Assembly: GCA_050084515.1 (NCBI GenBank)
Contig: CM114271.1
Coordinates: 37,014,001-37,078,000 of the forward strand
Source: Blasia pusilla
Lineage: Eukaryota
Reading direction: 5' to 3'
DNA: 64,000 nt
This document shows positions 5,715 to 64,000 of the stretch, in pieces. The notes beneath the pieces were generated by a model. The model made no database searches. It saw only the letters and a program-made list of their open reading frames with translations, and was not told the DNA's origin. Position 1 is the stretch's first letter. Each line of letters starts with the position of its first letter. Made by a program: the position numbers and the translations under genes.

Positions 5715-8700
5715 CGGTCCTAAGCTGAAAATCTATTTCAAGCAGTTCAGGTCCATCGCCTGACCCAAGACATGACTTCGTGATGCCTCTGATAGTGAAG
5801 GTATTGTCGTCACTCCGGTAGGGAATCCCATCGCTCGCTCTTGCCCATCGGCGTTGGGCTCCACCAACCTCTGTACTTGGTCATCCCAAACCAAGCCACG
5901 TCCGGCCTCCTTGAATGCATAGGAAGCAAGAAAACTCACAAATATGGGAAAGGCTTCCCGTGGCATGCCAATCCTGTTGACCACAGTCAACGGCGATCGA
6001 TCATCGTGCCTCACTACCTGGATCCAAAATAGAATCCACCAACAAATCGGAGGGGCGCTCCACTCTAGCATACGCCCTCGCAAAACCTCATGTGGGACCA
6101 AGTTGGTCCACCAAAGACGCGGGCGGTGTGCTCTAGAACCGCACTCATGCTTGCAAAACAACCGCTAAACCAGTGATGATCCCTCCAAAGAGATCCAGCA
6201 CGCGAATACCCTTCTTTGGGATGCACCACACAATCGGGGTGGTGTCCAAAGGGGTCATAGCAGCACTCGTGGCTACCTCGGGTTCCTCTGACCCGTCACG
6301 CTCTGAGCCCATATATGGCTCCCAAGTCTCCATCGTGACTACGATAGGACTCTTTGGCGCGGTTGTTGGTGGTTGCTATGCTGCAACCCCATCTCAGACA
6401 ACAGAAATCTCATCTCCACGTGAAGTACCCAGAACCACGCTCGATGTTGTGGCTACCATCTCCTGGCGTACCTACAAAACATCCCAAGAAGTTCAAGGAT
6501 GTCTCTTCCGATCACCCCTAGTGTGTCGATCTCCTCGGATCTCGCCCCCAGCCACTGCCTCAACCCCACCTCGTCTGCACATGCTCATCATATAAACGTC
6601 GAAGCTCCTCACTCGAGCCCCACAACGGCACCTCTCCTCCACGGAATGATGCAGTTATCATAAGACTCCTCTCCCTAGAAGTGGCAGGCACACGGATATC
6701 CTCTGCATGGACATGCCCCTCAATCAAATCAGAAGGCCACGTGATGGCACTGCTAAATGTTGCTAAAGTCGCCATCTCTCCAAGCCGTCGCTCTATCATT
6801 CCACCTATGAATTGAACAGGTAATGAATTCGTACATCACCGGACTGCCATCCTGGTCTGTAGGACGCTGACTCCTCCCAGTAATCTAGGGAAAATCCCAT
6901 TGGTTACAACATTGCTCCACCAACCAAAATGTTGTAGGACTCTACATCGATCACTATCGCCTTGGCTCGCACCACAGACTCATCTATAGGATGTCCTGGG
7001 TGAATCCTCACCACAATCTCATGTGGGGTGATATATTGTGTGGTACTCGCTCCATCCAAGGATGTTTGTATCTGGAATGGATAACGCTCCACATCGGCTC
7101 TCGTCAAGCACAATCCTCTGAATGACGCTTTCCCCAACATTAGGGGTTGCGCTCCTGAATCCAACAAGACGAGTTGCGGACTAAAAGCTCTACCTCTTGA
7201 ACTCACCAACTGAAAGATCTCTCCCCAGTTATCCAGTGAAACAACGCCACGAGAAGCCATGGCACGCTCTATCACGGCTCTAGCGAGCATCTTGGCCATC
7301 CTAGCAGCCGCAGGCCGCCATGAATCTGACGTGAACGGCCTGAGCGTCAAATCTAAGGGCAGGTCCATCACCTCCTCTCCAATCACCTCTAAACGTGATG
7401 CAAAAAATCCAACGCCACGCTCACATAGCATAGCGGCCAGTCGAAAAACCTCGGCGGGCGTACCTCCCAACGTCATAACATCGAAAGCAGAAAACAAAGG
7501 AGTGCGGTACACAACAGTGGCCGCCACCAACAACGTGCCCGACACATGCTCCTCCTAAGCATCAACAATAGGAGTCGTTGCACTCGTTTCTCCCATCGCC
7601 CTCCGTGCTTGCACACCAATAACATACCAACTCTCCCGAAACTCTGATGAGGACCCATCGATGGGGTCCTCATCACCTTAGACAATGTGGAAGACTGAGG
7701 AAGCCTAGTCTGTTTCTTGGCTTCCCCTGGATGTGGATCCAATTATGCAACTGCTCCACGTATCACAACTAGGCGGCCTCCATCTGGGCAACCCCGCACA
7801 TCCATCCAAGATCCTCCATATCTTTGGCTGCTCCATATGATGTCGATGCCACGGATACGACATCGAGTAATCTCAATGCCATAGCGGAAATCTGCTCATG
7901 TAGCTGCTGTATCTGAGCAACCATCCCAACCTCATGCTCGGCATCTCCCTCGACGCGTCTAGGTGGTGGGACTCTACCTCCTCCACGGGAAACTCCATCA
8001 CCCTAGCGGGCAACTCCAGCTCCTCGTTCCCCAACGGGACCACCTGGTGCATGATCTCTAGGCCCACCCGGACTGGCTACTCGCTCAGATGCCCTCTCCG
8101 GCCCTCACTCCGGACGTAACTCATGGTGTAAACTGAAACACCTGGTGTGTGTGTGACCATACCTCTGACAATAGTCACATTGATAACCTCCTCGTGTAGT
8201 ACCATCTCCTCCTCCATGTTGGGGCACATGTCCATGACCCTTATGAGTGCAATCATGCTGATGATGGGCTCCATCACATGACCAATAAGTAATCGTAGGC
8301 GGCTGCCGCATATGAAGAAGCAGGTCTTTGTGGCATGGCCTCCCGATATCCTCCTTGAGCTCATGGTGCCACAATCGACCTATCTCGGAGTCCACGTTGC
8401 TGCACTCGTGATGCAGGCAATCGTGACTGCTCTCGCCCAGAACCCATGGTGGCTACGCTCTCCTCCGCCATGTTGCGCTCAATGTTCTTGGCGGTCCTAA
8501 AAACATCTCTCAACGTAGATGAGGTTTTCATAAGAAGTACCCCCTCCCACAACCGTGTCCGCAGGGTCCTGTCCAGTATCCAACCCGTGTCCGTAGGATC
8601 CGGTCTATACCATGACTGGATAGCCTGAGCCTCTATCACCCCCTGAGGGACGTTGATCAACCGACGCAAGCGAGTGCAAGCCTCACGCAAACTCTCACCT

Positions 8701-11502
8701 GGGCGCCTGTGGAAGTCGTGGATGCTCCGCAACTTCTCCGTCCGTACCCCGTGGTAGCTCGTCCTCAACTCAGCAAAGAACTCAACCACGAGGTTGAATT
8801 TGGGACAAACCCGACTAGACGGTGCAACTTCCCCAGTGCGAGTTACCCCATCGTCCTCTTCCACTAGTGATGTCTTCCTTTGAGTAAAACATCATTGGTG
8901 GAAGAGGAAGTAGCCTCTCCTGACTCCTCCTCCTCATCTGGGAACGACTCCGTCCATGGCACATCGTGTGGGTCATAGTAGAGTCGCCATGCCTCAATCT
9001 CTTGGGCATATATGTGGGAGAACTCATGGTAATCGTCCATGGGTGCCCCCTCTAAATGCTAGAATATACCATTCCATGATGTAAACGGGTTGAACTCTCT
9101 AGAGTTCCTAGCCCGTTGTGAGTTGCACGAACTCCTAAACTCCGCGATGAAGTTGTTCATCTCTATTGTGCCTACTGCACCTGAGAACCTATGCGGTCCT
9201 CTATCCCGGTCGTCCATCTTGTATGCCCAAGCAATAGGACTACTCAACGTGAGTGGCAAAGCACTACTCAAATCCTCTACGTCATCCTCCTCGTCTGAAG
9301 ATGACAAAGAAGGAGGTCGAGATGGTCCCGTACGTGGAGACCCTCGAAACCTCGCGCCACTCCGCGTAAATCCTCTAGAGCTACTCTCCGGTCCTCCACC
9401 TCGCCTCTCGAAGTCCCAAAAGGACGCCGTTATGACCCTCGTGCCCCCCTCACACGATCACTCTCAACCTCGCGAGTAATCATGCAATCACTCAATCTAA
9501 CATGCGGCACTCAAGCTACACTCTCTCACCAAGATGTGTGTTGTGCGGCAACAAGCGACGTGGTGCGGAAAATCAACTGATCTATAGTCTTATCGATAAA
9601 CCATCCTCAACTATGGACATCCCACACAGGTCTATGTCCCCTCAACCCATACGTCATCAATGCTCTCAACATCAGCACGAAACCCAATATCCTAAATAAC
9701 TTCCCAATACCCAAAATTCCCTCACACGTGCAGGGTAAGAGACTAGAATGGATAACCTGACAATAATGTCGATGTCGCTCCTCGGCAACTGCAAATCTCG
9801 ACCCCAACTCGATCGTGAAGACAACTCCTCCAATCAGCTAGTCGTACTCCTCTCGTACTAACGGTCCTCAAACCTCCTCAATATGCGGTGCGGATCCATC
9901 GGTACGGTGCGGCACTGGTGGCACTCAAGGGCTACAGAACGGCACGGCACTCGATAATGGAATGCAGCACTACGCGGCATATCCTCCTCAATCAGCAATA
10001 CACATGCTCTGCTCCTTAGTGAAGGAGCGGCTCCACGATCGAGACGGTGCGGTGCGGCACGGCGCGGAAATTGGTAGCACGTTGCGGCTACAGGTGTCAC
10101 GAGCACGGTACTCGATTGTCCTCGAGCGGCTACCAATCACAACATAGGATAATGAAATGAAAACTCAAACACCATAACCCAAGTTTACATATCATCATTG
10201 GTTGATGACAAAATTGCGATGACAGTGGTGACCAAAATAAAGTACGTGGTGTCGGCACAAGTGAGAGAATCAACGGTCGTCGTGGAAGACCCTCCACTCC
10301 GTAATGGCGGCAATGACAACCAAGGGTGGACAACGGCCGAATGAGACTCTGAGCAGTGCTAGGCGGCGGCCGACGGTGGACGGTGGACCATTGACGGTGA
10401 TGGCGGACCGTTGACGGTTGACCATTGACGGTGACTATGACGGCGACGGCCGCCGCCCGCGCGGCGGCTGGTTTAGGGTTTGAATAATTTTACCCTAAAA
10501 ATCGCCTAGCAATGGCAATTTGCAAGATTGACCATAACTTTTTTGTCGCAACTCCAAATCATGCATAGTCTATTGCACAACATGCAAAACTTTACGATCT
10601 ACAACGATATAAAAAATATTTTGAATCAGAAATTCCAGTAAAAACCGACATGGACTGTCGTAAAGCCCAACGTCTCTTTCTCCTACACAAAATTTGGCAG
10701 CGCTTCCGCGCTAATTTCTCCCAACGAAATTGTAAAATATGTGAAAACAAAAATCAACAAGCTACATGGTGCTCCCGAGAGCACCGGCATGGGAAAATTT
10801 GCCCCCATACTCAATCCCTATCAAAAATTGGGTTGCGCTTCCGCGCGCCAATCTTCCACAGGAAAAATCGGCAAAGGAAACATAAAAAATGAGCTGCTCC
10901 GGTGAGCACTCCCATAAACCGTTGAACAAGGAATACGATCCCCAACCTGAAAAACCAGCGAGTGACTAGCGAGCCCAACCCGAAAAACCAACGAGTGACT
11001 AGCGAGCTCCTCTATGGAGCGCTTTCACTCATCTCATTCTCTCTTTGAAAATCAAGATCCAATCTCTCTCAATGTCAACCAAACCCACTCTCCTAATGAG
11101 AGGCTTGGGTTACACACACAAGGCAAGCAAGACCATAGCTCCGTTGCCCCATGCCAAAAGGTTCAACAAAGTGAGAATGAGCTCTCTAACTCTCTCTCCT
11201 TGAGGTATACCCCTCCCCTCTCCCAAGAACTCTCCATGGTAACCTATGCTCCCAAGTCACCCCCTTGGCTCTTGACCTGGTGTAGGAGGTCAAGGGCTAC
11301 TTACCAAAAATATAAAGTCGACCATATACTCAAATGGTACTTTCCTAAAATAGTAAGTTCCTCAATATGGCTCCAAATGAGCCGAAACGAAGGGGAAACG
11401 TGCTCGGGCCTCAACACGTTATCCTCGACCTCTTGAGCCTGTCCTCCACTACTTGTGAAGGCGTTCTACTATATCTCAACGATCTATCCTAAAGACGTGA
11501 CA
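5715..11502 (-). mobile_element. 5' half of MTase-bearing Gypsy-like element, family 1 (X repeat, long 5' UTR, gag, protease, MTase)
   Basis: X repeat at 11046-11502 starts TGTCAC on the - strand. Gag fragments lie in ORFs 9059-9307 and 8361-8864, with zinc knuckle CDYCQRYGHTHTRC in 8105-8395. Protease LLDSGA is in ORF 6904-7545 and the MTase lies at 5733-6230. The region is colinear with 37480-44112. Confidence 0.9.
5733..6230 (-). pseudogene. DNMT3-like C5 cytosine methyltransferase domain, internally deleted
   Basis: Motif I IRVLDLFGGI (ORF 6145-6333) is fused directly to motif VIII RPRLWWTNL and motifs IX-X EPNADGQERAMGFP..T / R.HVLGQAMD (ORF 5733-6161). The PC and ENV motifs are missing. 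Confidence 0.85.
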
Positions 11503-13606
11503 TCCTCGAAACCTCGCACCACTCCGGGTAAACCCTCAAGAGCTACTCTCAGGTCCACTACCTCGCCTCTCAAAATCCCGAACGAACGCCGTGGTGACCC
11601 TCATTCCCCTCTCACACCATCACTCTCAATCTCGCAAGTAATCCCTCAATCACTCAAACTAAACATGCGGCACTCAATTTACACTCTCTTACTAAGACGT
11701 GTGGTGTGCGGCAACAAGCAGCATGGTGCGGAAAATCAACTGATCTATTGTCTCATCGACAAACCATCCTCAACTCTGGACATCCCACACATGTCTATGT
11801 CCCCTAAACCCATACATCATCGATGCTCTCAATATCAGCACAAAACCCAATATCCCAAATAACTTCCCGATACCCGGAAATCCCTCACACATGCAGGGTA
11901 AGAGACCATAATGGGTAACGTGATAATAATGTTGATGTCGCTCCTCGGCAACTGCAAATCTTGACCCCAACTCGGTTGTGAAGACAACTCCTCCAATCAA
12001 CAAGTCGTACTCCTCTCGTACTGAGGCTGCTCAAACCTCCTCGATGTGCGATATAGGTCCAACGGTATGGTGCGGCACTAGTGGCATAAAATGGCTATAA
12101 ATGCCATAACACTCGATAATGGGATACGGCACTCCACGACATACCCTCCTCAATCAGCAATACACACCCTCTACTCTTTAGTGAAGGAGCGGCTCCGCAA
12201 TCGAGACGGTGCGATGAGGCACGGCGTAGAAATCGATGGCGCATTGCGGCTACAGGCGTCATGACACATTGCTCGATCATTTTTGATCGTAATGGACGGT
12301 CTTCCACAATGACCGTTGGAAACCAACGGCCGAACTCGGCTCTGAGTGGCGGTAGGCGGTAGCGGCGATCGACGGTCGAACGTTGACGGCGGATGGCGAA
12401 GATGGACCATTGACGATGACGGTGGATCGTTGACGGCGGACTGTCGATGATGATGGTGGATCATTGATGGTGACGGTGATGGTTGACCATTGATGGCGGA
12501 CCGTTGAAGGCGATAGCCGCCGCCGACGCGGCGGCTAGTTTAGGGTTTGAACAATTTTACCCTAAAAATTGCCTAACAATGGAACTTTTGCAAAATTAGC
12601 CATAACTTTTTGCTCACAACTCCAAATTGCACACTATTTGTTGCACAACGTGAAAAACTTCACGATCTAGGATGGCGTCAAAAAATATTTTGAAGTAAAC
12701 CTTCCAATAAAAACTGACGGGGATTGTCGTAAATCCCAATGTCTCTTCTTCTACATAAATTTTGGTAGTGCTTCCGCGCTGATTTCTCCCAACAAAAATG
12801 TAAAAGCTGTGAAAATAAAAATCAGCAAACCACATGGTGCTCCGGAAAGCACCAGCATGGGGCAACACGCCCCCATACTCAATCCCTATGAGAAATTGGG
12901 CAGCGCTTCCGTGCGCCACTTTCTCACACGAAAAATTGGCACACAAACGTCAAAACAACGTGGCTCTTGCTTCCGTGAGCACTCCCATGAGCCATGAAGC
13001 CAGGAACACGGTCTTCAACCTACACCAAACATCGAGCAACCAGCGAGATCCCCCATGAAGCTCTCTCATCCTCTCATTCTCTCTTTTGTAAAAATAAGGT
13101 GAAATCTCTCTCAACACCATAGCTCTCAAATATGTGTACTCTCACATGTCTCTTTCAATGTCAAACCAAACCCACTCTCCTAGTGAGAGGCTTGGGTTAC
13201 ACACACAAGGCAAGCAAGATCATATATCCGCCGCCTCATGCCAAGAGGTTCAACAAAGTGAGAATGAACTCTCAAGCTCTCTCTCCTTGAGGTATACCCC
13301 TCTCCTCTCCCAAGTTCTCTCCATGGTAACCTATGCTCCCAAGTCACCTCCTTGGCTCTTGACCTGATGTAGGAGGTCAAGGGCCACTTACCAAAAATAT
13401 AAAGTCAACCATATACTCAAAATTGTACTTGCCTAAAAATAGCAAGTTCCTCAATATGGCTCCAAATGAGCCGAAACGAAGGGGAAACCTACTCTCTCAA
13501 GTTTCCTGGGGCCCCAGCACGTCATCCTCAACCTCCAGAGCTTGTCCTCCACTACTCACAAAGGCGCTCTACTAGATCTCACCGATCTATCAAAAAATAT
13601 GTGACA
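11503..13606 (-). mobile_element. Second family-1 5' end (X repeat 13087-13606, 5' UTR and start of gag)
   Basis: 11503-13080 parallels 9343-11045. X runs TGTCAC...TTTTACA on the - strand. The flank CAAG is at 13607-13610. Confidence 0.88.
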
Positions 13607-16600: not shown

Positions 16601-18373
16601 AGGTGGTGGACTTGCCCTCGGAGTAGGAGCTCAGGATGTCCCCCACTGAGTCATGGCATGCGGCGGCGGTAAAATTGGTAGACATGCCAGCTCGTACGGC
16701 CATTGAGCGAGCCATGATCACACCACATGTGGTGTTGTTGGATAATTGAGCATGAGTGTTTTGCTTGGTTAGTCCCACAGGTACGGTGTACCACCCGTAG
16801 CGCGTCCTACTTGATTCGGGAGTGCATCCCTTGATGTTAGGGAAGGCGGCGTGTTTGGCGTTGGGATTACGGAAAGGCAACATCGAGCCTTGTCCCTTTC
16901 AGATACAGACCTCTATTGGGGGCGTATCACCCACGTAGTTCATGACTCGACATGAGTTGGTGGTTAGACTCTAGCCATAGCATGAGTCGCATAGTGCGAT
17001 GGTGCGCACTCGGGCGATTATGACACCGGCAAAGTCATATGATGTATTGGTACGGAGTACGGTATTGTACCCTCTAGGTTTCATTCTGGATTTTTGGGAG
17101 GAGACGGTTTCTTATCAGCTAGGGCATCGATCAGGTGGTGGACGCGCATGTGAGCCATCTACCGGTGCATTTTGCAGGGAGTAGAGGTGGTCGACCACGT
17201 GAGGATACGATGACCACGTTGGCAGCATTCACAGGTGGTGTTTGGGGAGAAGAGCACACATGCGGAGGACATTCCCGTAGTGGATAGTCCCATTGAGAGA
17301 CATGTCAGGGTGGATGTCTCTTCCCATGGTGCAAATCTTCTTTATTTTTGTTGGGGACGAGTGTTGAGATGCGTGGAGTGCAGAAGAGCTCGTGAGGCAG
17401 GCATGGAGCTGTCTCTATGTTTGGAGCGGGTTACAAGAGTGCTAGATCTCTTCCGAAGGATCAACGCTGTGGGTTGTTGCAGTGTGGCAGTGTTGCGGGG
17501 ATGACAGCACCAATGGTGCTAGATATGTATAGGATAGGAGATCTTGTCATGTACATATGTGTGTGCTATTTGGAGTTAGGAGGACCCAATTGCCAGCTAG
17601 GGTGGCGGTTGTGGGATCCCAGTGTATATGCGTGAGTATGTTTCATTTATGTGTGGATCTACCCATATGTTGGGGAGGATTGATGTTGTGTGGTGTGAAG
17701 ATGTGACCAATGATGTGGATTGTGTAGCGATGTGTATGTGCACAACAGTTGTCACATCTTATTTCGACGTAGGTAGAGTTCTATCACGTCGACGGCATAG
17801 TGAGTCAACGGGCTGTTTGGGTGTAACTTTATCCCGAGATGTCAGATGAGGTTGGAAATAGGTATGTTGTGCTGGGAACGTTGTTTATGGCAATTTCCCT
17901 ATTTTGGTTTTAGTTTTTCAAGTGACCCGTTGACCGAGTCAATGATGACTCGATAACCTGTGCACGTAGATTACCGTTGGGAGGGCTATTTTTGGGGGAC
18001 GAGTTTTTTGGCTCTTCCCAAGGGTATAAGAGTGAGAGTGATGGCTTTCTCAAGCCATCTTTCTCATGTTGAGCCTTAGGCCTCTCTTGCATAAACGTGT
18101 GTGGGTGTGTAGGAGTTAGGGTGCTAGCATCCGGATTTCCTCATAGCAGAGGGTGGATGTGGTTCGATATGCCAATGTAGATTCATGAATGGAGTTTTAG
18201 GCCGAGTGAGCCATTTTTACTACTCTTGATTTTGTTGTGGGGTCCCAGTGTATATGTTTGAGTATGTTTCATTTATATGTGGATCTACCGGTATGTTGGG
18301 GAAGATCGATGTTGTGTGGTATGTAGATGTGACCATCAATACGGGTTGTGTAGCAATTTGTATGCGCACGACA
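13611..18373 (+). mobile_element. Family-2 element, 3' portion (UTR, gag, protease, MTase motif I, then a deletion to the 3' end)
   Basis: Gag homologous to family 1 (FSGVVGTIDLDDFIQE..NPFMAWKGLFQRLE; VEFFRQLRRSYQGVRT). Knuckle CSMCGRSHRERDC. Protease VLLDSG at ~16805. RVLDLF motif I remnant at ~17440. Ends ...GCGCACGACA at 18373. Confidence 0.85.
17608..18373 (+). repeat. Family-2 split direct repeat 3' end: Y 17608-17747, X 17750-18233, Y 18234-18373
   Basis: The two Y copies both begin GTTGTGGG and end GCAC(A/G)ACA. X is the reverse complement of 29093-29584. Confidence 0.9.
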
Positions 18374-24164: not shown

Positions 24165-27100
24165 TTTGTACAATTGTTGCGTTGGTGAGCCCCATACCTA
24201 CCGAGACGGTTGAGGCATCCTAAGTTGACAGGAGGAGAGCGGCGCCGGATACATTAGTTCCTGAGGAGTTATACGAGTTGCTTTGCATTTAGCATGCAAG
24301 ATTAGGGCACGGTGAAGGGTCCACGGATCCGCATTGAGTTGTCAAGTAACACGCCGATCTTCCGACGACCCTACAGGTATAGTGACATGGAGAGAGCTTT
24401 GATTCAGAGTAGGATCCAGGACTTGGTTGGAGCAGGACTAGTAGAGATGTCGCATTGAGAGTATACATCTGCCACTGTCATGCCTGCCAAGAAGGATGTG
24501 CATGGCGACTGGACGGATAGGCGGATGTGTGGAGATTACCGACGTATCAATCGGCAGACGAAATCGGACAGGTATGCCATGCCCATCCCTGAGGAGATCT
24601 TTGATATGATTGGGCATGCAAAGATCTTCAGTTTTTTAGATCTTCGAGCCAGATACCATCACCTGCCTATCAGATTGGAGGACAAGCACAAGACGGAATT
24701 TTGGGGCATCGATCCTCACGGGAAGGATTTCTTGTACCAGTGGTAAGGATATATTGATGACATCGTCATCTTTAGTGCCATGGTTGAGGAGCATGAGCGA
24801 CATCTAGAGGAGGTGTTTCGACGATTGTAGTTATATGGGCTGAAGCTACATCCAAGCAAGTGCAAGTTCTTCTACGACCAGATTGAGTACTTGGATCATA
24901 CGATATACCCAAGTGGCCTTGGTGTGCAATAAACAAAGGTAGAGGCTATTTCACGCATTCTAAGCCCTACAGATGTGAGTCAAGTTTGTGTATTCATGGG
25001 ATTGGCGAACTTCTATCAACGGTACATCAAGGGTTTCAGCTTGATTGCGAAGCCGCTGACCTTGTTGACCAAGGTGGATTAGGAGTGACACTGGGGGGAT
25101 GAGCAAGAGAGAGCATTTCAGATGCTCAAGGATGGGGCATCCTTTAGAGTTGCATACCGATTGGAGCATGTTGGGTGCTTGGAGCCGTGCTCACCCAACA
25201 TGACGATGATGGTAGAGAGTTCGTGGTGGCTTACGCTAGTTGCTCGAACAACGCTGCAGAGACGAAGCATAGTTTGTATGAGGGTAAGTGCTTGGCTGCA
25301 GTGTGGACTGTCGCACATTTTAGATGTTATCTATTCGGAAATCCCTTTACCATCATTATTGATCATTAGCCACTTAAGTGGTTGATGGAGTGCGACAAGC
25401 TTATAGGGAAGTTTGCGAGGTGGGCTCTTTTGTTGCAAGAGTATGACTTCCAGGTAATGCATAGACCTAGGATGCAGATGGTTTGAGCTATAACCCATGC
25501 CCGAGTCAGCGAGATGCGATTGGATCTCGTTGGCATGGTGAGAGTGATGAGGAGTTGATGCCAGGATGGCATGCGTTAGCCTATTTGGGCTTGTTGGCTA
25601 TAGAGAGCCAGATTGCTGAGACTTCGATGGCGAGGTCTGATGGAGAGTCCTTAGATCCAGAGGCTGGTGAGGAGACAACAGATGGCCGAGACTTTCACGA
25701 CGATAGAGTGGTATTGGAGTACTTGCGTACTTGCAGCGTCGCGAGCACAATGGGTGCTAGAGAGTGGGATCGGATCCTACAGCGAGCCAGATGATTCCGA
25801 TGGGAGGGGACACATGTGTTGCGAGTGTGGAAGGATAGTAGAATGCGTGTAGTGCCTCATCCTTTGCAGAGAGCACGTTTGGTGCGTCATGCCCACGAGG
25901 AGTTGGATCATTTTGGAGTGAAGCGGACGTACAGCTGGTCCAGATTCAGTATTGGTGGCGAGGCATGCAGATTGACGTTTAGCAGTTTGTTGCCAAGTGC
26001 ATGGTATGTGATCGAGTCTGAGCATCATTCAATGCTCGGACTCCACAGTTGCATCTACTTCCGATCATGGATTTAGGTTATAGATGGAGTTTGGATTTTG
26101 CAAGATCTTTGCCTTTGACAAAGCGCCATAGTCGTTATGTGTTGGTGATGGTCGAGCACTTCTCGAAGTGGATAGAGTTGGTTGCATTTCCTAACAAAGC
26201 GAGTGAGGGAGTAGCGTATGCCTTCCTAGATTGAGTGCTGAGGCATTACGGTGCACCAGTTGAGGTGTTGATAGACCAAGGTATAGAGTTTCGCAGGGGG
26301 TTTCAGGCCTTTTGTGATCAGGCACTGATGGACCACCGCACCACTTCACGAGATCATCTCGGGCGCATGGACTAGCGGAGAGGGTTGTGCAGACGGTGAA
26401 GAGAGGATTACGCAAGTATGGCTTGCAGAGAGGTCACCTAGGAGATTGGGACCTTCAATTGCTGTGGTTGGCGATGGGATACAGATTCAGCAGGCAGACG
26501 TCCTTGGCATCTTTCTCACCGTACTTGCTGCTTTAAGGCCATGAGCCAGATTTATATGAGGCCATTCATCGAGATGTTGGTGAGGTGTTGAACCTTGATG
26601 ACTCTGATGTATGGATGAGAGCATGTTCACAGAGGACTGAGTTGTTCCGGAGAGTGATGCCCATGGCGTTTGAGAACTTGGAGATTGCGCAACATCGGGA
26701 TACATTGAGATATGCGACTATTAGGGGGGGTGGTTATCGACCTACTATGCAGAGGTTTCATCAAGAAGATTATGTCTACTTGCAGTAGACGTCACGATCG
26801 ACGTTGGATGTGACTGCAGGGCGCACCATCTTGAGAGTGCGTGAGGTTTTACCACCAGGTGTTCTCTTATTGGAGGGATACGATGATATGGTTTGGAAGG
26901 ACCATATGCGTAACTGTGCGCCGTGTCATCTTCCGAACATTGAAAATACATTTGATTTGAGCTTAGCAGTAGTTTCTGCAGGCTTGCGATGTATGTTGTG
27001 TGGTTCTGCCCGTGGTGCAGCCACTATGCTAGTCTATAATGGATGTTCGAGAGGATGGCATATGGCATGCTTAACGCCATCTCTCACTAGGATTCCTCAA

Positions 27101-28069
27101 GGATGATGGATGTGTCCTAGATATACATAGAATAGGTAGTTCTACATTCCCACTTGTGTCTGTGATGATATGGATGACAAGAAGGCGACGAACGATGGGG
27201 CCACATGCGCACCCGATCTTCTTGCTCTTAGCGTCCGAGAGATGTATGTCATGGTAGGTAGGGATAGATGGCTATCTGGAGTTAGAGGGACCTAACCACT
27301 AGCTAAGCAGGAGATTGGAGATATTTTGGTACCTATTGTCTCGTTGTTTGGATGCCATGAGTTAGCATGGGATCGTGCGTGTTTGTGTGTGTGTTCGATG
27401 ACAACGATGTATGTTATGTAGTGATGTGTATGCGCACGACAACTGTCACATCTTTTAGGATAGATCGGTGAGATCTAGTAGAGCGCCTTTGCGAGTAGTG
27501 GAGGACAGGTTCAGGAGGTCGAGGATGACCTGCTGAGGCTCCGAGAAACTTGAGAGAGCAGGTTCCCCCTTCGTTTCGACTCATTTGGAGCCATATTGAG
27601 AAACTTACTATTTTAGGCAAGTACCATTTTGAGTATATGGTCGACTTTATATTTATGGTAAGTAGCCCTTTACCTCCTACACCAGGTCAAGAGCCAAGGG
27701 GGTGACTTGGGAGCATAGGTTACCATGGAGAGAGCTTGGGAGAGGGGAGGGGTATACCTCAAGGAGAGAGAGCTTGAGAGCTCATTCTCTCTTTGTTGAA
27801 CCTCTTGGCATGAGGCAGCGGAGCTATGGTCTTGCTTGCCTTGTGTGTGTAACCCAAGCCTCTCATTAGGAGAGTGGGTTTGGATTGACATTGAGAGAGA
27901 CATGTGAGTGTGCACACATTTGAGAGCTATGGTGTTGAGAGAGATTTCACCTTATTTTTATTGGAGATATTTTGGTACTTCTTGTCTTGTTGTTTGGATG
28001 CCATGAGTTAGCATGGGATCGTGCGTGTTTGTGTGTGTGTTCGGTGTAGCGATGTGTATGCGCACGACA
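24165..28069 (+). mobile_element. 3' half of family-1 element (RT, RNase H, integrase, PHD, Y-X-Y end)
   Basis: RT motifs RMCGDYRRIN and YIDD (~24750). RNase H VVAYAS..YEGKCLAAVW..DH. Integrase WSLDFA..VEHFSKW. PHD CMLCGS..CSRGWHMACL. Ends GCGCACGACA at 28069, followed by CTTG. Confidence 0.92.
27314..28069 (+). repeat. Family-1 split direct repeat 3' end: Y 27314-27441, X 27444-27960, Y 27961-28069
   Basis: Both Y copies run TTGGAGATATTTTGGTAC...GCGCACGACA. X is the reverse complement of 13087-13606 and shares the diagnostic ATTTCACCTTATTTT. Confidence 0.92.
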
Positions 28070-28073
28070 CTTG

Positions 28074-29584
28074 GAGCCATAATGGCTCCTTCCGTCCTTC
28101 CTTATTCCACGAGTTTGGGGCCATAATGGCTCCTTTCCTTCACTCCTACACCTTCGGAGCTCACCCAACTTCGTCTGCCCAATGTCCTGAATCTCCTCTC
28201 TCCCAATTCCACTTCAAGCACCTCTCTCTCTACCCAACGTCTCTCCACCTAAGTTGGGACGGTCGTGTCCTCTCTCTCTACGCCTTAATGTGGGTGCACC
28301 GCCCTATGCGGAGGACCCCCCTTCTGAACCTAGAGTGCTCGCTCCAGCTCCCGGCTCTTCTTCTCCCGACCTGCGGTTTCTTCTCCGTCTCCTTCAAACC
28401 CACTCCTTCCTTCCCGCGTCCTAGGGCACGACGCCCTATACACGGCTCGCATTACTAGAGCTCCGGGCTCCTTCCACCCTCGCGTGCCCCACTCCAAACT
28501 GGCGCGCTTGTCGCGTTGCACCTCCCAGCTCTACTGCTACCTCCTTGTGACACGGCTCCCTATGGAGTTGTGACCCTGTTTCTTTCCACTCCCATTTCCG
28601 TTGTCAACAAGGCCGTATCCCGGTGCTCGGCCATATCCTTCCCGGATGCGTTTCCTTTCCCACCCTCTCCTTGTGCGAGCCTTTGACCTACCTGCGGTGC
28701 CCAGCTGCTTAGATCTAAACCTCCCACATAACCTGCGTGACCCAACTCTAGTCGTCCTAGGAAGCTATTGCCTAGCCCTTACTAGCCCCCTTCATGGCGG
28801 CTGCTGTTCCCACAACTAATACTGTTCTCTCCCGACACTCACCGCTCACCCATCGATGATAGTCTTCGCGCTACACCTGAGCGCTACTACTGCTACACTC
28901 TGATGCTCTCCCCCATCAACCCTCACTGTCAAGATTCAAGAAAAATGGACAGTGGTTCCGCTCACGGACTCCCAAACATAAAAAAATGCCACCAACAACG
29001 TCAACCAACATCTCATGGACTTCCCAACCGAGGCAATTCGCTTGCCTACATGCAAACAACGAATTTCCACCAGCGCATTGACATCTTTCTCATGTTAAAT
29101 CAAGAGTAGTAAAAACGGCTCACCCGGCCTAAAACTCCACTCATGAATCTACATCGGCATATCGAACCACATCCACCCTCTACTATGAGGGAATCCAGAT
29201 GCTAGCACCCTAACTCCTACACACCCACACACGTCTATGCAAGAGAGGCGCTCCTAAGGCTCAACATGAGAAAGATGGCTTGAGAAAGCCATCCCTGTCA
29301 CTCTTATACCTTTGGGAAGAGCCAAAAAACTCTTCCCCCCAAAATAGCCCTCCCAACGGTAACCTACGTGCACAAGTTACCGGATGACCGTTGACTCGAT
29401 CAACGGGTCAGCTAAAGGACTAAAACAAAAATAGGGAAATCGCCATAAACGAAGTTCCCAACACAACAGACTTGTCGCCAACCTCATTTGACATCTAGGG
29501 ACAAAGTTACACCCAAACTGACCAACTGACTCACTATGCGGTCGACGTGATAGAACTCTACCTACGTCGAAATAAGATGTGACA
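28074..29584 (-). mobile_element. Family-2 element, 5' portion (X repeat 29093-29584 and purine-rich 5' UTR)
   Basis: Starts TGTCACATCTTATTTCG on the - strand, identical to 17750. The flank AACC at 29585-29588 is the reverse complement of GGTT at 18374-18377. Confidence 0.88.
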
Positions 29585-34047: not shown

Positions 34048-35330
34048 CTATGTACATCGGGGACACATCCATCGTCCCCGAGGAACCCTAGTGAGAGGTG
34101 GCGTCAGACATGCCATATGCCAACCTCTCGAACATCCATCACACACTAGCATCGTGGCCGCACCACAAGCAGAACCACACAACATACAACGCAAGCCTGC
34201 AGGAACTACTTCTAAGCTCGGATCTAATGTACCATCAATTTTAGGAAGGTGACATGGCGCACAATTACGCACATGGTCCTTCCATACCATACCATCGCAT
34301 CCCTCCAGCAAGAGAACACCGGATGGCAAAACGTCATGTACTCTCAGAATAGTGTGCCCTACAGTCACATCCAACGTCGTTGGTGCCGTCTGCTGCAAGT
34401 AGACATAATCTCCCTGATGAAACCTCCGGATAGTTGGTCGATAACCACACTCCGAATAGTCGCATACCTCAACGTATCTTGATGCTGTGCAATCGTCAAG
34501 TTCTTGAATGCCATGGGCATCACTCTCCAAAAAAACTCAGCCTTCTGAGAACATGCTCGTATCCATACATCTGGGTCATCAAGGTCCAGCACCTCACTAG
34601 CATCTCGACGAATGGCCACAGGTAAATCTGGCTCTCGGCCATAAAGTAGCAAGTACGGTGAAAAAGACGCTAAGGATGCCTACCTGCTGAATCTGTATCC
34701 CATCGCCAACCATGGCAACTGGAGGTCCCAATCTCCTAGGTGACCTCTCTGCAATCCATACTTGCGTAAACCCCTCTTCACCATCTGCACAACTCTCTCC
34801 GCTAATCCATCCGCCTCAGGATGATCTCGCGAAGTTGTGCGGTGGTCGATCAACGCCTATTCACACAAGGCCTGGAACTCACCGTGAAACTCGGTACTCT
34901 GGTCTGTCAACACCTCAGCCGGTGCGCCATAATGACTCAAGACTCGATCTAGGAAGGCATACGCTACTCCATCACTCGCTTTGTCAGGCAATGCAACCAA
35001 CTCGATCCACTTCGAGAAGTGCTCGACCATCACCAACACATAACGACTGTGACGCTCCGTCAAAGGCAAAGGTCCTGCAAAATCCAAACTCCATCTATAC
35101 CCTAAGCCCATGATCGGTAATGGATGCAACTGTGGAGTTGGAGCATTGAACGATGCTCGGACCCGATCACACACCATGCACCTGGCAACAAACTGATGAA
35201 CGTCAGTCTGCATGCCTCGCCACCAATACTGAATCAGGAGCAAGCTGTACGTCCGCTTCATCCCAAAGTGACCCAACTCCTCATGGGCATGCTACACTAG
35301 TCGTGCTCTCTGCGAAGGATGCGACACTAC
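34048..35330 (-). pseudogene. DDE integrase with C-terminal PHD finger (PHD ~34051-34195)
   Basis: HHCC motif HAHEELGHFG..CMVC, then WSLDFAGP, VLTDQ and GLAERVVQ. C4HC3 PHD CMLCGSACGAATMLVCDGCSRGWHMACLTPPLTRVPRGRWMCPRC. Confidence 0.93.
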
Positions 35331-37479: not shown

Positions 37480-39424
37480 TATTTCAGGTCCATCGCTCTG
37501 ACCCAAGACATGACGCTTGTCGTTGATACCTCGACATTGCCCTAGCGATCTGCCGTCACTCATGAGGGAAATCCCATCGCTTGCTCTCTCTCGTCGGCGT
37601 TGGGCTCCACCAACCGCTGAACGTGGTCATCCCAAACCAAGCTGGGACTGGCCTCCTTGTATGCATAGGAAGAAGGAAAACTCACAAACATGGGCAAGGC
37701 TACCCGCGGCTTGCCTACCCTGTTGACCACAATCAACGGTGGTCGATCATCGTGCCTCACTACTTGTTATCGACGACATGGATCAAAAATGGAATCCACT
37801 AACAAATGGGAGGGGCCCTTCACTCTCGCATATGCCCTTTGTAACACCGTATGTGTCGCGACCCTCATGACCAAACAAGTGCCAAGCGGAACATCGGAAC
37901 ATTAGCGGGCTCACGCTAAGATGGTTTGCGCGTTGGAGTTGTCTCAAAGAGGAGACAAGAGATGAGACGCGAGCGAGAAGCCGCGTTTCAGATGTGATGG
38001 TCGCGACTCGGAAACCTGGACCAAACGCGGAATGAGACTTGAAAGAAGTCGAGTCTAGGAAGTGGGTTGCCAAAGGAAAGATCCGGACTTGGAACGCCAC
38101 TTGTGTTTGAGAGTTTCCGACTGTATTTATGGCCATAACTTTTAGCGCCAAGATGCATTTTGAGCAAATAAGAGTGCGTTGGAAAGCTTATGGAGAGCCG
38201 GTTCAAACGCACCAAAGATCGCTGCAAACGCATAAGCAGAGACCGAGATACGACCCGAAAACGACTGTAAGTGGAGTCGGGTCGAGGGCCACAATGAAGG
38301 GCCCGAACCTCTTTTCCCAAAGGGGAGGGGTTATTGGAGAACTCCAGAAGTACTAGTAAGGGGGAAGGTCTCCGAGAGTGCTTGGAACCCAAACCCCACT
38401 TTGGGCCATGGGGCGCTCAAGGGCATGGAACGGAACGCGAGTTTGGGCGTTGGGTTGGAGAACCTGCACCAAGTCTATTGAGGCGATTTTAGACATCCCT
38501 CTTGGATTTCACGCCGCGACTCAATTACTTGGGTCTCGGTTCGGAACTCACACGAGGACCGTTGAACAGTTGGGATTGCTAGGCGTGTAAGTGCCGTTTC
38601 AGATCCCTGGACTAACCAGGAAGTCTGTTCCAAGTCTTGAAGGACTTGCCATGTGTTGGGAGCTAGGAATTAAGGAAGGTTGAGCTTGATGAGACGCCGA
38701 GTTGAGGACTCGGTGGGTTGGAACGCCGGTTGGCCAAACCCGACTAACGAGAGTGCGTGTTTGGGTGCAGATCGGCGATGAGTTCGTGACCTACTGAACA
38801 CACGCTTCCGCAACACTAAAGATTGACGTTCAAGGAGAGTAGGGGCGCGACAGTATGGGGCACCAAGTTGGTCCACCATAGACGCGGGCGGTGGGCTCTA
38901 GAACCTACACTCGCCGCATCCAAGAACACTGCTTGGCCGATCTAGGCACGCACCTGATGAGCACTCGTCACCATCCGTGACTTGGAGTCTCCTAAGATTG
39001 GCACATTCTCCGGAATGTAGGCTGGAGATCGAGACTCGTGCTCTTGCAACTGCCGTAAGACCCTCAACATCTCCCAAAACAACAAGGACCGAGTGTCAGC
39101 CAACCCGCTGCCTCGTCTAGCACTCGATTGGCCTTGACATGGCCAACCGGCAATGACCAAATCAATGGTCCCTTCCTGCTCTAAGTCATGCGCCCCCAAC
39201 AACGAAATATCCCTCTGTAGGGAACTCTGGTACCCTGTACCGCGGACGTAGACAATAAGTCGGGAAAACGAGGGGCGAATCGCTGCGCCACATGTCATAG
39301 TGAGACGCGCCTCGCAACATCATCACTCTCCACATACAGGTACTGTTGCACTCGCACTCCTACCTGCAAAACAGCAGCTAACCCGGTGCTAATCCCTCCA
39401 AAGAGATCTAACACTCGAATACCC
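37480..39424 (-). pseudogene. DNMT3-like C5 cytosine methyltransferase domain, interrupted by a solo LTR
   Basis: Motif I IRVLDLFGGISTG (~39385-39424), II YLYVE, III DI, IV IDLVIAGWPCQGQS (~39125-39165), V RSLLFWE, VI ENV (~39003-39011), VIII AHRPRLWWTNL (~38865-38900), IX EREQAMGFP (~37565-37595), X RHVLGQ (~37500). Confidence 0.92.
37854..38852. mobile_element. Solo LTR (999 bp) of an unrelated family inserted in the MTase domain
   Basis: Termini TGTCGCG...CGCGACA with a 5-bp TSD GTATG at 37849-37853 and 38853-38857. No coding motifs recognised inside. Confidence 0.88.
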
Positions 39425-43594: not shown

Positions 43595-44112
43595 TGTAAA
43601 GTAAGATCCAATCTCTCTCACAACACCATAGTTCTCACATGTGTGCACTCTCACATGTCTCTCTCAATGTCAAACCAAATCCACTCTCCTAATCAGAGGC
43701 TTGGGTTACACACACAAGGCAAGCAAGACCATAGCTCTGCCGCCTCATGCTAAGAGGTTCAACAAAGAGAGAATGAGCTCTCAAGCTCTCTCTCTTGGAG
43801 GTATACCCCCTTCCCTCTCCCAAGCCCTCTCAACGGTAACCTATGCTCGCAGGTCACCTCCTTGGCTCTTGACCTGTTGTAACGGGTCAAGGGCCACTTC
43901 CCAAGTGGAAAGTCAACTATTCCCAATATGGAAAGTTACCCGAAATAGTAAGTTTCTCTATATGGCTTCAAATGAGCCGAAACGAAGGGGAAACCTGCTC
44001 TCTCAGGTTTCGCAGGGCCTCAACATGTCATCCTCGACCTCCTAGGCCTGTCCTCCACTACTCGTGCAGACGCTTTGCTAGATCCCACCGATCTATCCTG
44101 ATAGTCGTGACA
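43595..44112 (-). repeat. 5' X repeat (LTR-like, 518 bp, TG...CA)
   Basis: Matches 33215-33731. On the - strand it is followed by AAGAGAGAGTG rather than a TGG-type PBS. Confidence 0.93.
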
Positions 44113-44638
44113 ATTTTGTGCATCTCTAGTTTGGACTCTTCTTTTCTATATCCACCTTGTTTGTATCATCAATCTTTAATCCCTCATTTTATCTACTATT
44201 GTCATCCATCCTTGACTCAAGTGCACCCCTTTGTCTTTTGATATGTTTCTAGTTCCATTAACATAGTATAGCCATATGTCCATCCTTTTATCGGGCTATC
44301 ATTGCATCATTTCTTTTGTCTATCTGTCCATCATATTTGTGAATTTTTTTCAAAATGTTCTGCTAGATCCCACCGATCTATCCTAACAATCGTGACAATT
44401 TTGTGCATCTCTAGTTTGGACTCTTCTTTTCTATATCCACCTTGTTTGTATCATCAATATTTAATCCCTCATTTTATCTACTATTGTCATCCATCCTTGA
44501 CTCAAGTGCACCCCTTTGTCTTTTGATATGTTTCTAGTTCCATTAACATAGTATAGCCATATGTCCATCCTTTTATTGGGCTATCATTGCATCATTTCTT
44601 TTGTCTATCTATCCATCATATTTGTGAATTTTTTTCAA
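44076..44638. repeat. Tandem duplication, ~285-bp unit spanning the element terminus and flank
   Basis: TGCTAGATCCCACCGATCTATCC...GAATTTTTTTCAA starts at both 44076 and 44361. Confidence 0.92.
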
Positions 44639-47319
44639 TATGTTTTCTATGATCCCATCATGTTTTCATTTTTTTCCCAAGAGCAATCTAAATCAAATCA
44701 CAACTCAATCCACCTTCATTTCAAATACAAGAATGGAATCAATAGTGGATCTAGTTAATATTGTTGCAACCTAATGATAATAACATGTCATTATTAGGGA
44801 GTTCATAGTGGGTAATGTTACTAATGTGAGTTAATGTTACTAAGCATTAATGATATGAGATTATGTGCTTATCTCCCATTGTGGTTTGAATCAAATTTAA
44901 GGAGATACTTGAATGGGAACCATTTGATAGTCATTATTGATCAAGCTTACAAGAAAGCTTAGCATGTGAACTCTACCATGTTAGGAGCAAGAATATCAAG
45001 TGGTTTACATACAAGCTCAAGAGCATTGGAAAATCGATCTATTTTATCAAGTGAGTTGGATAGAGTTTATTGGCCACAAAATGTTCAATGGGTTCATGAG
45101 CACACCTTTTTTTGTTTGAGAAGGTTATCTTTTGGTGTTTTGTGTCTAATGAAAGTGGTGTGGAGTGGGCATCTTAGGGCTACCTTCCGTGGGCAAATTG
45201 GGATTTTCGTGTCCATGTGACAAACCCGAAATTAGAGTCCATACATAGAACGGAAAATGGATACTACTACTGAGATTAGTATAAAATCTGACAACATTAC
45301 TCTGCAATAGAAATTTTTGGGGTTAACAGAATTAACTTTCTACTTAGAAATCCTCATGACCCCCATAATTGAGGACACTATGCTTTCAGGGTGCCATAGG
45401 CATCATAAGCAAGGCTAGAATGAAGGAGTTTATGATTTGTTGGAACGAGGTATTGACGAGACTCTAACAAAAGCATGTGATAAATAGTTAAACAGTAGGG
45501 GCTACGACTACTAACTTCAAATTGATGAAGATTCCTAAGGTGTTTTGAATTGAGGAGCAATTTTAGACCCCATTAAATTCACACTTGATTTTGGAGGTGG
45601 TCACCTCTTTAGAGTAGAATGCCTGTAGTATGATAAACAAGACAATCAATTTGCAATAAGATTCTTTAACAATCTTATAGGTGGTTAACAAAGGTATCAA
45701 GTGGTTATACCAATATTTGATGTTATATTGGCTTGACCTAGAGAGTTATTAGGAAGTGACGGTTCCTTTGGAGGGTGTGCATATAGGGGATGGTCCTCAA
45801 GAGAAACATGTAATGGGATGGATGTCTCTCCCACCACCATATTTGGGATATCCCGTTTTGGAATGGGCCCGAAGTCTCTAATGGCAACCTACGATGTTGT
45901 GTAAATGGATTAAAACATGAGCAACAAACTTGGAGTGAGATTTGTTTTATTTAGGAATCATACAATCTCCTTGCTCGTGGATTAAGGGTATTTTTATCCC
46001 TTAGACAACACCTTCTAGTCACAATATACAAGTCAAGTGTGAGTATTTCATCTATTTGGTGGGATGACACTTACCTTATGCTGTTGGAGGCCAATGTTCA
46101 TACTGGACAAAGGTGGGAATACAAGATTAATTTTTTTACATTTTGTATATTCTTATATTCTCAAATGGGATGTTTCTTTGAATCTCCTAAAACTTTCCTA
46201 CAATTTTCTTTGCTCCAAACATGATGTGTGGATTTTGATGTGGATGGTGTCTTTGCTCTTAAATTGTGAATTCATGCCACTCAAAAACCAACCAATCATG
46301 AGTAGTTTCCATCAACACACCAAATGCTAATTTTCCATCCCCATCGTGCATGGAAGCCCATAAAAGAAAGGAAGAAAGTGGACTAAAGAATACCAACACC
46401 AAAAATTACCATAACCGTACACAAAAGTTCTATAATTGAGACTTTATGAAGTACATAGAGCAATCTTGTGGCAGTTTCTAATTACAGCCTTGCAAGGTGT
46501 CACTTTTTTCCTGGCCATCTAGAATATCCACGCGCCCTCTACATGTATGTATTCATCACTTTCTTCCCCCCTACCAATCTCAAAGGAAAGGGCCGCACAT
46601 TGGTTAGACTATACTACAAAAATCCCTTGAATTTCACATCCCCAAGTAGCCCCTTATATGCAGACCCAGGCCTGGCCAACACTCCATACCAACAATGTGA
46701 AGCCAAGTAGTTTTTTTGTCAACCATCTATGCTAATTATAGGAGGGGAATGGTTTCTTGATTTGTCAACTCCTTGGATTGTCGAACATTTATCCTTATCC
46801 TAGGATAGTCAAGCATTTTTCTAACAAGTCTCAAGTGGAGCAAATAAAAGTTGGCTCGATGCAAAGCATAGAGTCCCATCATTACTAGTCATAGCTGGAA
46901 GCAAATAGAATTGAATTCCTTTAAGTTCCAAGTCAATGGAATTTACTCATCATAATTTTCTGCACCTACATTGGAGCAGTGAGTGAGATACAAAGCTCAA
47001 GCTTCTAAAGAAAAGAGAAGCCCATCCCTTCACAACGCCTCAATTCTGTTCGTCTGTCTTGTCTGTCTGTCTACTCCAAGAAATGAAAGTCATGGATCCT
47101 CTACTGGTTAAGTACACTCACCAGCAGCCTCATTCATTCTAGTCATGACACTCGAGTTTCCATTCAGATCTTGTGGTCGAGAACCTCGTTGCTTCCTGAT
47201 TGTGCTTAACGAAGATGCATAGAACTGGGCAAGCATCAGACTCTTGAGACAAAACAGTTTCATGAGATTGGTGAGATCTGGATGATTGTGCTCAGTAATG
47301 GTGAGCAATCTCCAACAGT

Positions 47320-63200: not shown

Positions 63201-64000
63201 TCGATAAGGTAGCAAAAATGGACCAGAATGTTCGGAATCGAGTTGGTGCACAGATCCTCCATCTGACGTTGAAGGAGCTCTTTGTGTTTCGCTTCATGCA
63301 GGCAAGTATCTTCAAATATGAGAATCGGTGAAACTATCATACACCATAGAAGTAGGGTCAGTGAAGAACAGAGAAAATGGACGTTTAATATGGACTCGAA
63401 TGATTTGTGAGCGTTGGAATCGGGAGTTGAATCTTTAGAGCCTGTAAGAAACGACGTCTAGGATCAGAGTTTCTGGTGAGAGGCAGGCATGCCGATTTAG
63501 GGTTTAGGGTTTAGGGTTTAGAGAGTATCTTCAAATATGAGAATCAGTGAAACTATCATACACCATAGAAGTAGGGTCAGTGAAGAACAGAGAAAATGGA
63601 CGTTTAATATGGACTCGAATGATTTGTGAGCGTTGGAATCGGGAGTTGAATCTTTAGAGCCTGTAAGAGACGATGTCTAGGATCAGAGTTTCTGGTGAGA
63701 GGCAGGCATGCCGATGTTTACGTCGTCGACACATGGTCATAAATTCGTGTTTTGTACTTCTATTCTGTCAAGACCTTGCGTGCCAACGTGACTTCCGAAG
63801 AAGCCATTATGGTAACAGGATTGACGATGAATCTGCAAAGAATGCAAGGATGATGTGAACAGGTTTATGTTTCTCGTTTGGGCTCTGAGGTGGAGCTTAA
63901 AGGAAGAATCCATTTCAGATTAGTGCAAGTCTGGAAGAGGGAATCCAATCTTACTCCAGTCTGTTGTAACCCTGCAGACGGATCCTAATTGGGGAAATTT
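51258..64000 (+). CDS. ABC1: Mitochondrial ABC1/COQ8 (UbiB-family) atypical kinase, 3'-incomplete. Exons: 51258-52009, 60862-61087, 61368-61520, 61945-62103, 62255-62414, 63192-63301, 63978->64000
   Basis: Motifs [28 protein letters not shown] (KxGQ), [39 protein letters not shown] and [11 protein letters not shown]. Exon phases join in frame. Confidence 0.96.
52120..53700. repeat. About 3.5 diverged tandem units of ~450 bp in ABC1 intron 1
   Basis: GA(A/G)ATTGCTAAGCTG-like starts at ~52141, 52592, 53066 and 53479. The blocks TGCACTGGTA, AAGGTAGA, TGGTGAGCACTCACACT and GCAAGG.TA.G.CAGGCA recur in the same order. Confidence 0.85.
54137..59428 (-). mobile_element. Ty1/Copia LTR retrotransposon, full-length with frameshifts, antisense in ABC1 intron 1
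   Basis: LTRs at 54137-54748 and 58824-59428, TSD TTATG (54132-54136, 59429-59433), PPT AAGTGGGAG next to 54748. Coding motifs are gag knuckle [58 protein letters not shown] and RH STTEAE/TKHI. Confidence 0.97.
58811..58823 (-). promoter_or_regulatory. Primer-binding site complementary to the anticodon arm of tRNAiMet (half-tRNA priming)
   Basis: GGTTATGGGCCCA directly follows the 5' LTR and is complementary to UGGGCCCAUAACC of initiator tRNA-Met. Confidence 0.85.
63305..63715 (+). repeat. ~192-bp direct duplication separated by (TTTAGGG)3TTTAG
   Basis: 63305-63496 matches 63524-63715. The telomeric tract is at 63496-63521. Confidence 0.93.

Follow-up and report, generated by a model that had tools for sequence, protein, structure and literature searches.

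Sequence signatures of a proposed shifted-LTR replication variant in a methyltransferase-bearing Gypsy family of Blasia pusilla

The window, meaning the whole 64,000-nucleotide stretch of the Blasia pusilla genome that was analysed (GCA_050084515.1, contig CM114271.1, forward-strand positions 37,014,001 to 37,078,000), contains copies of two repeat element families. Family 1 has the order X (about 516 nt), internal region, Y (128 nt), 2 nt, X, Y. Its full-length, decayed copy lies on the minus strand (44112-33105) within a 4-bp duplication, AAAT, and is composed of a 5' X (44112-43598), a primer-binding site from 43597, a coding region, a primer tract (33872-33862), an internal Y (33861-33734), the spacer GC, a 3' X (33731-33216) and a terminal Y (33215-33105). 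The coding region, broken by stops and frameshifts throughout, has the order gag, protease, C5 cytosine methyltransferase, reverse transcriptase (RT), RNase H (RH), integrase (IN) and PHD finger; the gag carries a zinc knuckle, and the protease-like stretch was read by eye. Fragments on this strand include the methyltransferase (38945-39319; PF00145, E 1e-10), the integrase zinc finger with the rve core (34860-35291) and the C-terminal PHD finger (34051-34536). The methyltransferase region also holds an insert of about 1 kb (37853-38851), with ends TGTCGCG...CGCGACA and a 5-bp duplication GTATG; similar inserts are present at several other loci, and this one probably represents a solo LTR from a conventional family. 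A 285-bp tandem duplication (96%; 44076-44657) copies the first ~37 bases of the element plus flank. The window further carries a minus-strand Copia element (54137-59426) with LTRs of ~610 bp that are 90% alike and open gag-pol pieces of 848 and 212 aa, and a 219-bp duplication (98%; 63305-63715) whose copies are separated by 3.7 TTTAGGG repeats.

A second family 1 copy, truncated at its 5' side, lies on the plus strand. Its internal region (24219-27302) is homologous to the RT-RH-IN-PHD part of the full copy and is followed by a decayed plus-strand primer tract (27303-27313; family form CTAGGGGGGCG) adjoining the internal Y (27314-27441, 128 nt), which is the predicted left end of the reverse-transcribed LTR. 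After the spacer (27442-27443) comes the 516-nt 3' X (27444-27959), with a TATA-like motif at 27753 and a predicted self-primer, CTCATTCTCTCTTTGT, at 27781-27796, and then the terminal Y (27960-28069), where the element ends in GACA at 28069; the X|Y join at 27959/27960 would be a ligation of cDNA ends. Two further family 1 copies on the minus strand are truncated and comprise a 5' X and the start of the internal region (11495-13606) and a 5' X with internal region (6573-11502). Family 2 is represented by a plus-strand 3' end (17597-18373), consisting of tract (17597-17607), Y (17608-17747), spacer GT, X (17750-18233, with a TATA motif and the self-primer CATCTTTCTCATGTT at 18056) and terminal Y (18234-18373), and by a minus-strand stretch (29082-29584) in which the 5' X is followed by the primer-binding site AACATGAGAAAGATG (29096-29082), an exact 15-nt complement of the self-primer at 29277-29263.

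The domain order RT-RH-IN was found by Pfam in the window copy and in the intact relatives, as in Ty3/Gypsy elements, and Ty3 Gag-Pol is the best solved relative of the element's profile (E 9e-148). The integrase is a DDE enzyme with a zinc finger (PF17921 and PF00665), in which D1169 and D1229 are invariant and E1264, 35 residues on, is nearly so among 20 relatives. Neither a tyrosine recombinase (PF00589) nor an extra nuclease family was detected in 22 window fragments or five intact relatives, while rve was present, and the C-terminus of the integrase in the window copy and the intact relatives carries a PHD finger instead of a chromodomain. Among the matches listed, the closest named proteins belong to the liverworts Calypogeia and Riccia (85-87% over an integrase fragment), followed by those of Marchantia, Sphagnum and Closterium; no Klebsormidium-named protein was among them. 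The position of the methyltransferase varies, lying before the RT in some relatives (P0052, P0043) and in the RNase H/integrase interval in others (P0070, P0113, P0102), which suggests repeated capture or movement. The element lacks two complete terminal LTRs with the usual primer site and purine tract, since its 5' end is X only and its primer tract precedes the internal Y, 130 nt ahead of the TG of the 3' X. Its repeats follow the A-coding-B-A-B order of PAT and Ngaro, unaccompanied by a tyrosine recombinase. We read the element as a replication variant of Gypsy and not as one of DIRS type.

The 3' end of the internal Y, the spacer and the start of the following X form a junction which an earlier note on this DNA had described as reproducing the joined element termini. 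Its plus-strand examples were recovered as given, GCACGACA-AC-TGTCAC at 27434-27449 and GCACAACA-GT-TGTCAC at 17740-17755; for the decayed minus-strand example, GCACGATA-GC-TATCAC, the sequence was right and the start was one base off (33741-33726, not 33740). That the two halves equal the termini also holds, as full copies begin TGTCAC and finish ACGACA, save for single-base decay. Within the window a loose junction pattern did no better than chance, with five matches against 2.5 expected, and the junction was therefore examined genome-wide in the 390-Mb assembly. The pattern GTATGCGCACGACA-N{0,8}-TGTCACGTC gave 424 exact matches and a reversed control pattern gave none. The tally of spacer lengths across copies which the earlier note had proposed returned more than 2 nt in only 3 of these 424, just three junctions genome-wide having a spacer of 3-12 nt; among the 100 exact matches listed, none had a spacer of 0-1 nt. 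At 30 loci chosen by an upstream anchor without reference to the junction, 24 run on into X, all 24 with a 2-nt spacer, five go into other DNA and one could not be parsed. The Y/X junction is two integrase tips placed back to back at a fixed spacing, and we regard it as a real feature, functional in design.

The length of the spacer is thus conserved as had been claimed, whereas the accompanying claim of a free sequence fails: AC, GT, GC or AT fills 92% of junctions. Since 392 of the 424 spacers are a purine followed by a pyrimidine (174 GY and 218 AY), the spacer is not random; the 29 junctions outside this class and the class longer than 2 nt were seen in part. Among 95 family 1 loci the spacer state is unlinked to flanking SNPs and carries no tree signal (40 changes against 40.3 when shuffled). 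The spacer evolves faster than its flanks, and AC and GT, a reverse-complement pair, exceed the expectation under independence (Fisher p 4e-4). Decay of methylated cytosine was considered as the sole cause of this variation and rejected: CWG rates, which go up to 0.31, would account for the second base (~30% T) but not for the first, which is more variable than methylated CWG sites and would require about 60%. As a speculation, if the dinucleotide between the palindrome arms were inverted and then underwent mismatch repair, exactly AC, GT, GC and AT would result.

The layout is not confined to the families of the window. From a metagenome set of 79 loci retrieved, 54 were examined, and 12 of these (about nine distinct elements) have the order tract-Y-nn-X-Y, their X and Y being unrelated in sequence; three of the 12 also have a 5' X, and the spacer is purine-pyrimidine in all 12, where it was read. 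The other 42 have no clear layout, many being short or decayed, and the GC-rich, probably algal loci showed no junction within 0.6-1.7 kb downstream, where contigs may end too early.

Signals for reverse transcription are found at both sides of the internal region. The G-rich tract CTAGGGGGGCG adjoins the internal Y on its 5' side in both window families, and a tract abuts the internal Y likewise in the 12 metagenome loci (of 54); it ends in GCG and is not pure purine. The stretch directly 3' of the 5' X has an exact complement inside X, 27-31 nt below the TATA-like motif. In family 1 this 16-nt site is matched within one mismatch in 25 of 30 5'-anchored loci, and complements are found in family 2 (15 nt) and in metagenome loci L215 (17 nt) and L219 (11 nt). 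The sequence differs in each of these four families (11-17 nt) with the pairing kept, which amounts to covariation, and the helix forms in predicted folds. The fold of L277, whose X is split by an insertion, is uninformative; L231 has an exact complement of 8 nt only with a two-mismatch flank, and in the decayed L231, L083, L142 and window copy the complement of 8-11 nt is no better than the shuffled maximum. Given the tract and the self-primer site, ordinary LTR replication would therefore yield [Y-nn-X]-internal-[Y-nn-X], with the tips inside the LTRs. Judged by these sequences, the priming signals should bound a shifted LTR, Y-nn-X, and the ends made by the RT should be uncoupled from those used in integration.

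The terminal X|Y join was compared in 96 family 1 copies: a form with one A, the commonest and read as blunt, occurs in 53, a form with one extra A in 33, and other variants in 10. The extra A has no tree signal (26 changes against 26.6 shuffled) on a quick tree built without the join, with 68 of 93 branches unresolved, a feature which it shares with the spacer. Three neighbouring SNPs that were likewise excluded from the tree do follow it (4 against 10.5, 2 against 10.5 and 7 against 18.9). Where the same X end stands in the 5' position, none of 24 copies has the extra A, and four nearby homopolymer controls vary in no more than 5%. Some joins contain remnants of the G-tract (L083, L088) or of the primer site (L168), and in L010, L112 and L123 a deletion from the X end into Y has removed the Y start. 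Family 2 is more uniform, 21 of its 30 joins being of standard length; of the nine exceptions, at least two differ at positions outside the join. The terminal join looks, from these variants, as if it were end-joined, a scar made anew each cycle; junction nucleotides of two-LTR circles have been ascribed to end-joining in plants too, in the part of that work considered here (PMC7197481). The filler of the L088 join starts GGGTTAC, between the X end and the tract remnant, and with the X end reads TTTAGGG, like the plant telomere repeat. A recurrent 17-nt deletion in the terminal Y was considered as a sign of re-templating and discarded, the internal Y having the same deletion beside an intact terminal Y (4 of 63 loci).

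For the termini, 40 copies were taken with 10 kb upstream, 17 of which retain the standard layout at both ends; adding the window copy gives 18. A 4-bp target duplication is exact in 12 of the 18 and has one mismatch in six, compared with none exact and nine with one mismatch among 306 mismatched flank pairs, and the 18 copies gave no signal at 2, 3, 5 or 6 bp. The duplication marks DDE integration and not tyrosine recombination, and the involvement of a retroviral-type integrase, named in the earlier note, stands. X copies best match their own partner in 15 of 17 elements, and subfamily SNPs are common to internal and terminal Y. The boundary of the X end with the primer site has 1170 exact matches genome-wide, and the family thus has more than a thousand copies in the genome. 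Copies of the form X-I-Y (I, internal region) that lack the terminal X-Y occur at five of 30 loci; of the three with a visible 5' end, L122 has an exact duplication, L138 one with a mismatch and L118 none, and such copies could come from one-LTR circles, from a double cut or from Y-Y recombination at a later time. Locus L091 has an extra module, internal-Y-nn-X-Y being followed by a tract remnant and Y-nn-X-Y. Solo X-Y units, or units without a Y ahead of X, were seen at L006, L011, L089 and at 11 of 30 family 2 loci; several lie within other copies. At L285 (G000 C1 near 4587500, minus strand) the final ~60 nt of Y plus AC stand ahead of the 5' X, with unrelated DNA beyond them; within the 3-kb stretch examined, beyond which the 3' end of the copy lies, this may be a cDNA end that was left uncut or a tandem that has decayed.

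Raw RNA from three runs of a single study (X22-X24; 6-12% of each) was aligned to a 3' end. Transcription is from the sense strand, the family being still transcribed although the copies examined are decayed; the reads come mostly from other copies, 90-95% alike. Depth reaches 118-237 over the internal Y and 101-342 over the remaining junction and most of X, and drops roughly tenfold, to 12-22, over the terminal Y; 42 reads run past the X end into the primer site. Neither a transcript start nor a poly(A) site could be pinned in these three runs. The profile is consistent with a shifted LTR and is hard to square with an RNA that carries the terminal Y.

We propose, with a probability of about 0.8, that this is a Ty3/Gypsy element with uncoupled RT ends and integration ends, in which integrase would open the CA-nn-TG in the 5' LTR and the cDNA ends would be ligated. 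The RNA would start in the 5' X, about 28 nt below the TATA-like box, cross internal-Y-nn-X and mostly end in the 3' X. Its 5' end would pair with the site after the 5' X in a Tf1-like self-priming, as sequence and covariation suggest, and the plus strand would be primed at the G-tract ahead of the internal Y. Ordinary strand transfers would then give a linear cDNA, [Y-nn-X]-I-[Y-nn-X], the ends of which lack TG..CA. At the junction of the 5' LTR integrase would make a 2-nt staggered cut 3' of each CA, producing two ends of the processed type, and these would be inserted with a 4-bp stagger, as the observed termini and duplication indicate. The true cDNA ends, the X end and the Y start, would be end-joined, giving X-I-Y-nn-X|Y; the scar is seen in the copies, and the enzyme and timing are conjectural. 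The junction in the genome would be the uncut twin of the opened one.

The order of events is less clear. Ligation first, by way of a two-LTR circle, falls a little short of even odds, and ligation after integration, within the chromosome, is rated as somewhat doubtful; a free circle is plausible. Integrase may select the junction that lies 128 bp from the join; alternatively, it would cut the linear cDNA close to the left end, and the ends would be joined in the chromosome. In a bolder form, which we hold to be almost but not quite an even bet, a widespread Gypsy lineage of bryophytes and streptophyte algae would use as obligatory integration substrate a two-LTR circle closed by host end-joining; integrase would open one of its two CA-nn-TG palindromes, and something would spare the second, which is thus inherited. 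Distance from the join, or the element's own methyltransferase, possibly protects it. A closed circle has two identical junctions, and no copy opened at the second was found in 63 junction-anchored or 30 5'-anchored loci (3 of the 30 disrupted); this counts against the model, which leaves the asymmetry unexplained. Random opening of a symmetric circle is rejected, no permuted copy being present in the 63 and 30 loci. A circle-precursor model of retroviral integration was reportedly put forward by Panganiban and Temin in 1984, and an obligatory two-LTR circle, if true, would be a natural case of it.

Three other explanations were weighed. The earlier note had proposed a circle as in DIRS/PAT elements; spelled out as a route like that of PAT and Ngaro, the RNA would reach the terminal Y, the ends would be completed from the internal Y-nn-X and a circle would be reopened at the re-created junction. 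The part of this proposal in which integrase opens CA-nn-TG best explains the termini and is retained. The templating of ends from internal repeats is not: the priming signals bound Y-nn-X, and the newly made join is X|Y rather than Y/X. The A-coding-B-A-B layout described for those elements (in part of PMC4157794), the spacer fixed at 2 nt and the homogenisation of X and Y within elements all agree with the route, which predicts however an inherited X|Y join, while the observed joins vary in type independently of their flanks and contain remnants of the priming sites; moreover it has no use for the tract before the internal Y or for the self-primer after the 5' X, and RNA is thin over the terminal Y. 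We consider it quite unlikely.

A shifted LTR with end-joining could also be cut internally by something other than integrase, either a host nuclease or the RT pausing or jumping at the palindrome, leaving to integrase ordinary processing and strand transfer. Evidence on the cutting enzyme is indirect, and RT events at the palindrome might explain why the spacer evolves faster than the sequence on either side; against this, the CA-nn-TG geometry is that of integrase chemistry, HIV-1 and foamy virus integrases cleave such internal palindromes in vitro, as parts of two reports describe (PMC1180852, PMC1905944), and the fragments and relatives searched above contain no extra nuclease family, so that this variant is unlikely. 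Very improbable is an ordinary LTR element with X-Y as its LTR, the layout of which arose by tandem insertion, nesting, deletion or assembly error. Tandems (L008, L061, L278) do occur, as do solo X-Y-type units, often with 4-bp duplications. However, the 5' X leads into the internal region and not into Y at 24 unselected 5' ends, as in the 1170 exact boundary matches, insertion into another copy would leave a spacer of 4 nt instead of 2, and other families and metagenome contigs show the layout again with X and Y of unrelated sequence. These counts refute the reading.

The proposed shifted-LTR replication of this Gypsy element is supported by several independent signatures in the sequence. With priming signals and tips at different places, integration seems to need an internal cut and host end-joining. 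If true, a retroviral-type integrase would have internal cleavage as its normal route, the disputed role of two-LTR circles would become testable in a natural element, and there would be a hint of how LTR layouts and DIRS-like split repeats interconvert. Annotation of the family will probably be wrong where LTR finders look for a complete repeat at each end. To our knowledge, reverse transcription in standard LTR elements always puts the integrase tips at the cDNA ends, and the LTRs of self-priming elements hold them there as well.

A published account of a shifted LTR with internal tips was not found in open-licence PMC and bioRxiv texts, Repbase reports and theses being outside this scope. 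The architecture has been noted once before, in Klebsormidium, and its mechanism is apparently undescribed. For KnitGypsy-Dnmt3 of Klebsormidium nitens (de Mendoza et al. 2018, PMC5890265) a figure legend gives DIRS-type repeats with Gypsy domains; like that group, the present element combines a cytosine methyltransferase in a Gypsy pol with a DIRS-like repeat layout, a likeness in layout and domain content. Unlike here, the main text, legend and supplement parts covered mention no junction, spacer, primer site, target duplication or mechanism.

The inserted copies of PAT, TOC, kangaroo and Ngaro, as described in parts of PMC4157794 and PMC7192593, share the order A1-coding-B1-A2-B2 with the present element, but those elements use a tyrosine recombinase, whereas here we find a DDE integrase, TG..CA ends, 4-bp duplications, LTR-type priming signals and an X|Y that looks end-joined. 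In Tf1 and Tj1 the site after the 5' repeat complements the RNA 5' end and not a tRNA, according to the relevant part of PMC4600332, and the same arrangement is predicted here; self-priming has been predicted for the moss Tcn1 clade too (PMC6317226, in part). Most elements of these types carry a chromodomain (PMC4600332, PMC6317226, same parts), whereas the present integrase ends in a PHD finger and the tips are internal. Foamy virus and HIV-1 integrases cut a head-to-head tip palindrome, as is proposed here; in the retroviral two-LTR case this palindrome is the ligation junction and belongs to a side route, at least in the portions of PMC1180852 and PMC1905944 concerned, while here it is encoded within the LTR, apart from the ligation point, and is apparently the sole source of tips. 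In minicircles of IS3, IS30, IS21 and IS256, as outlined in part of PMC3299598, a DDE enzyme likewise uses abutted left and right ends, but these are bacterial DNA transposons which involve no reverse transcription and in which the transposase makes the junction afresh every cycle.
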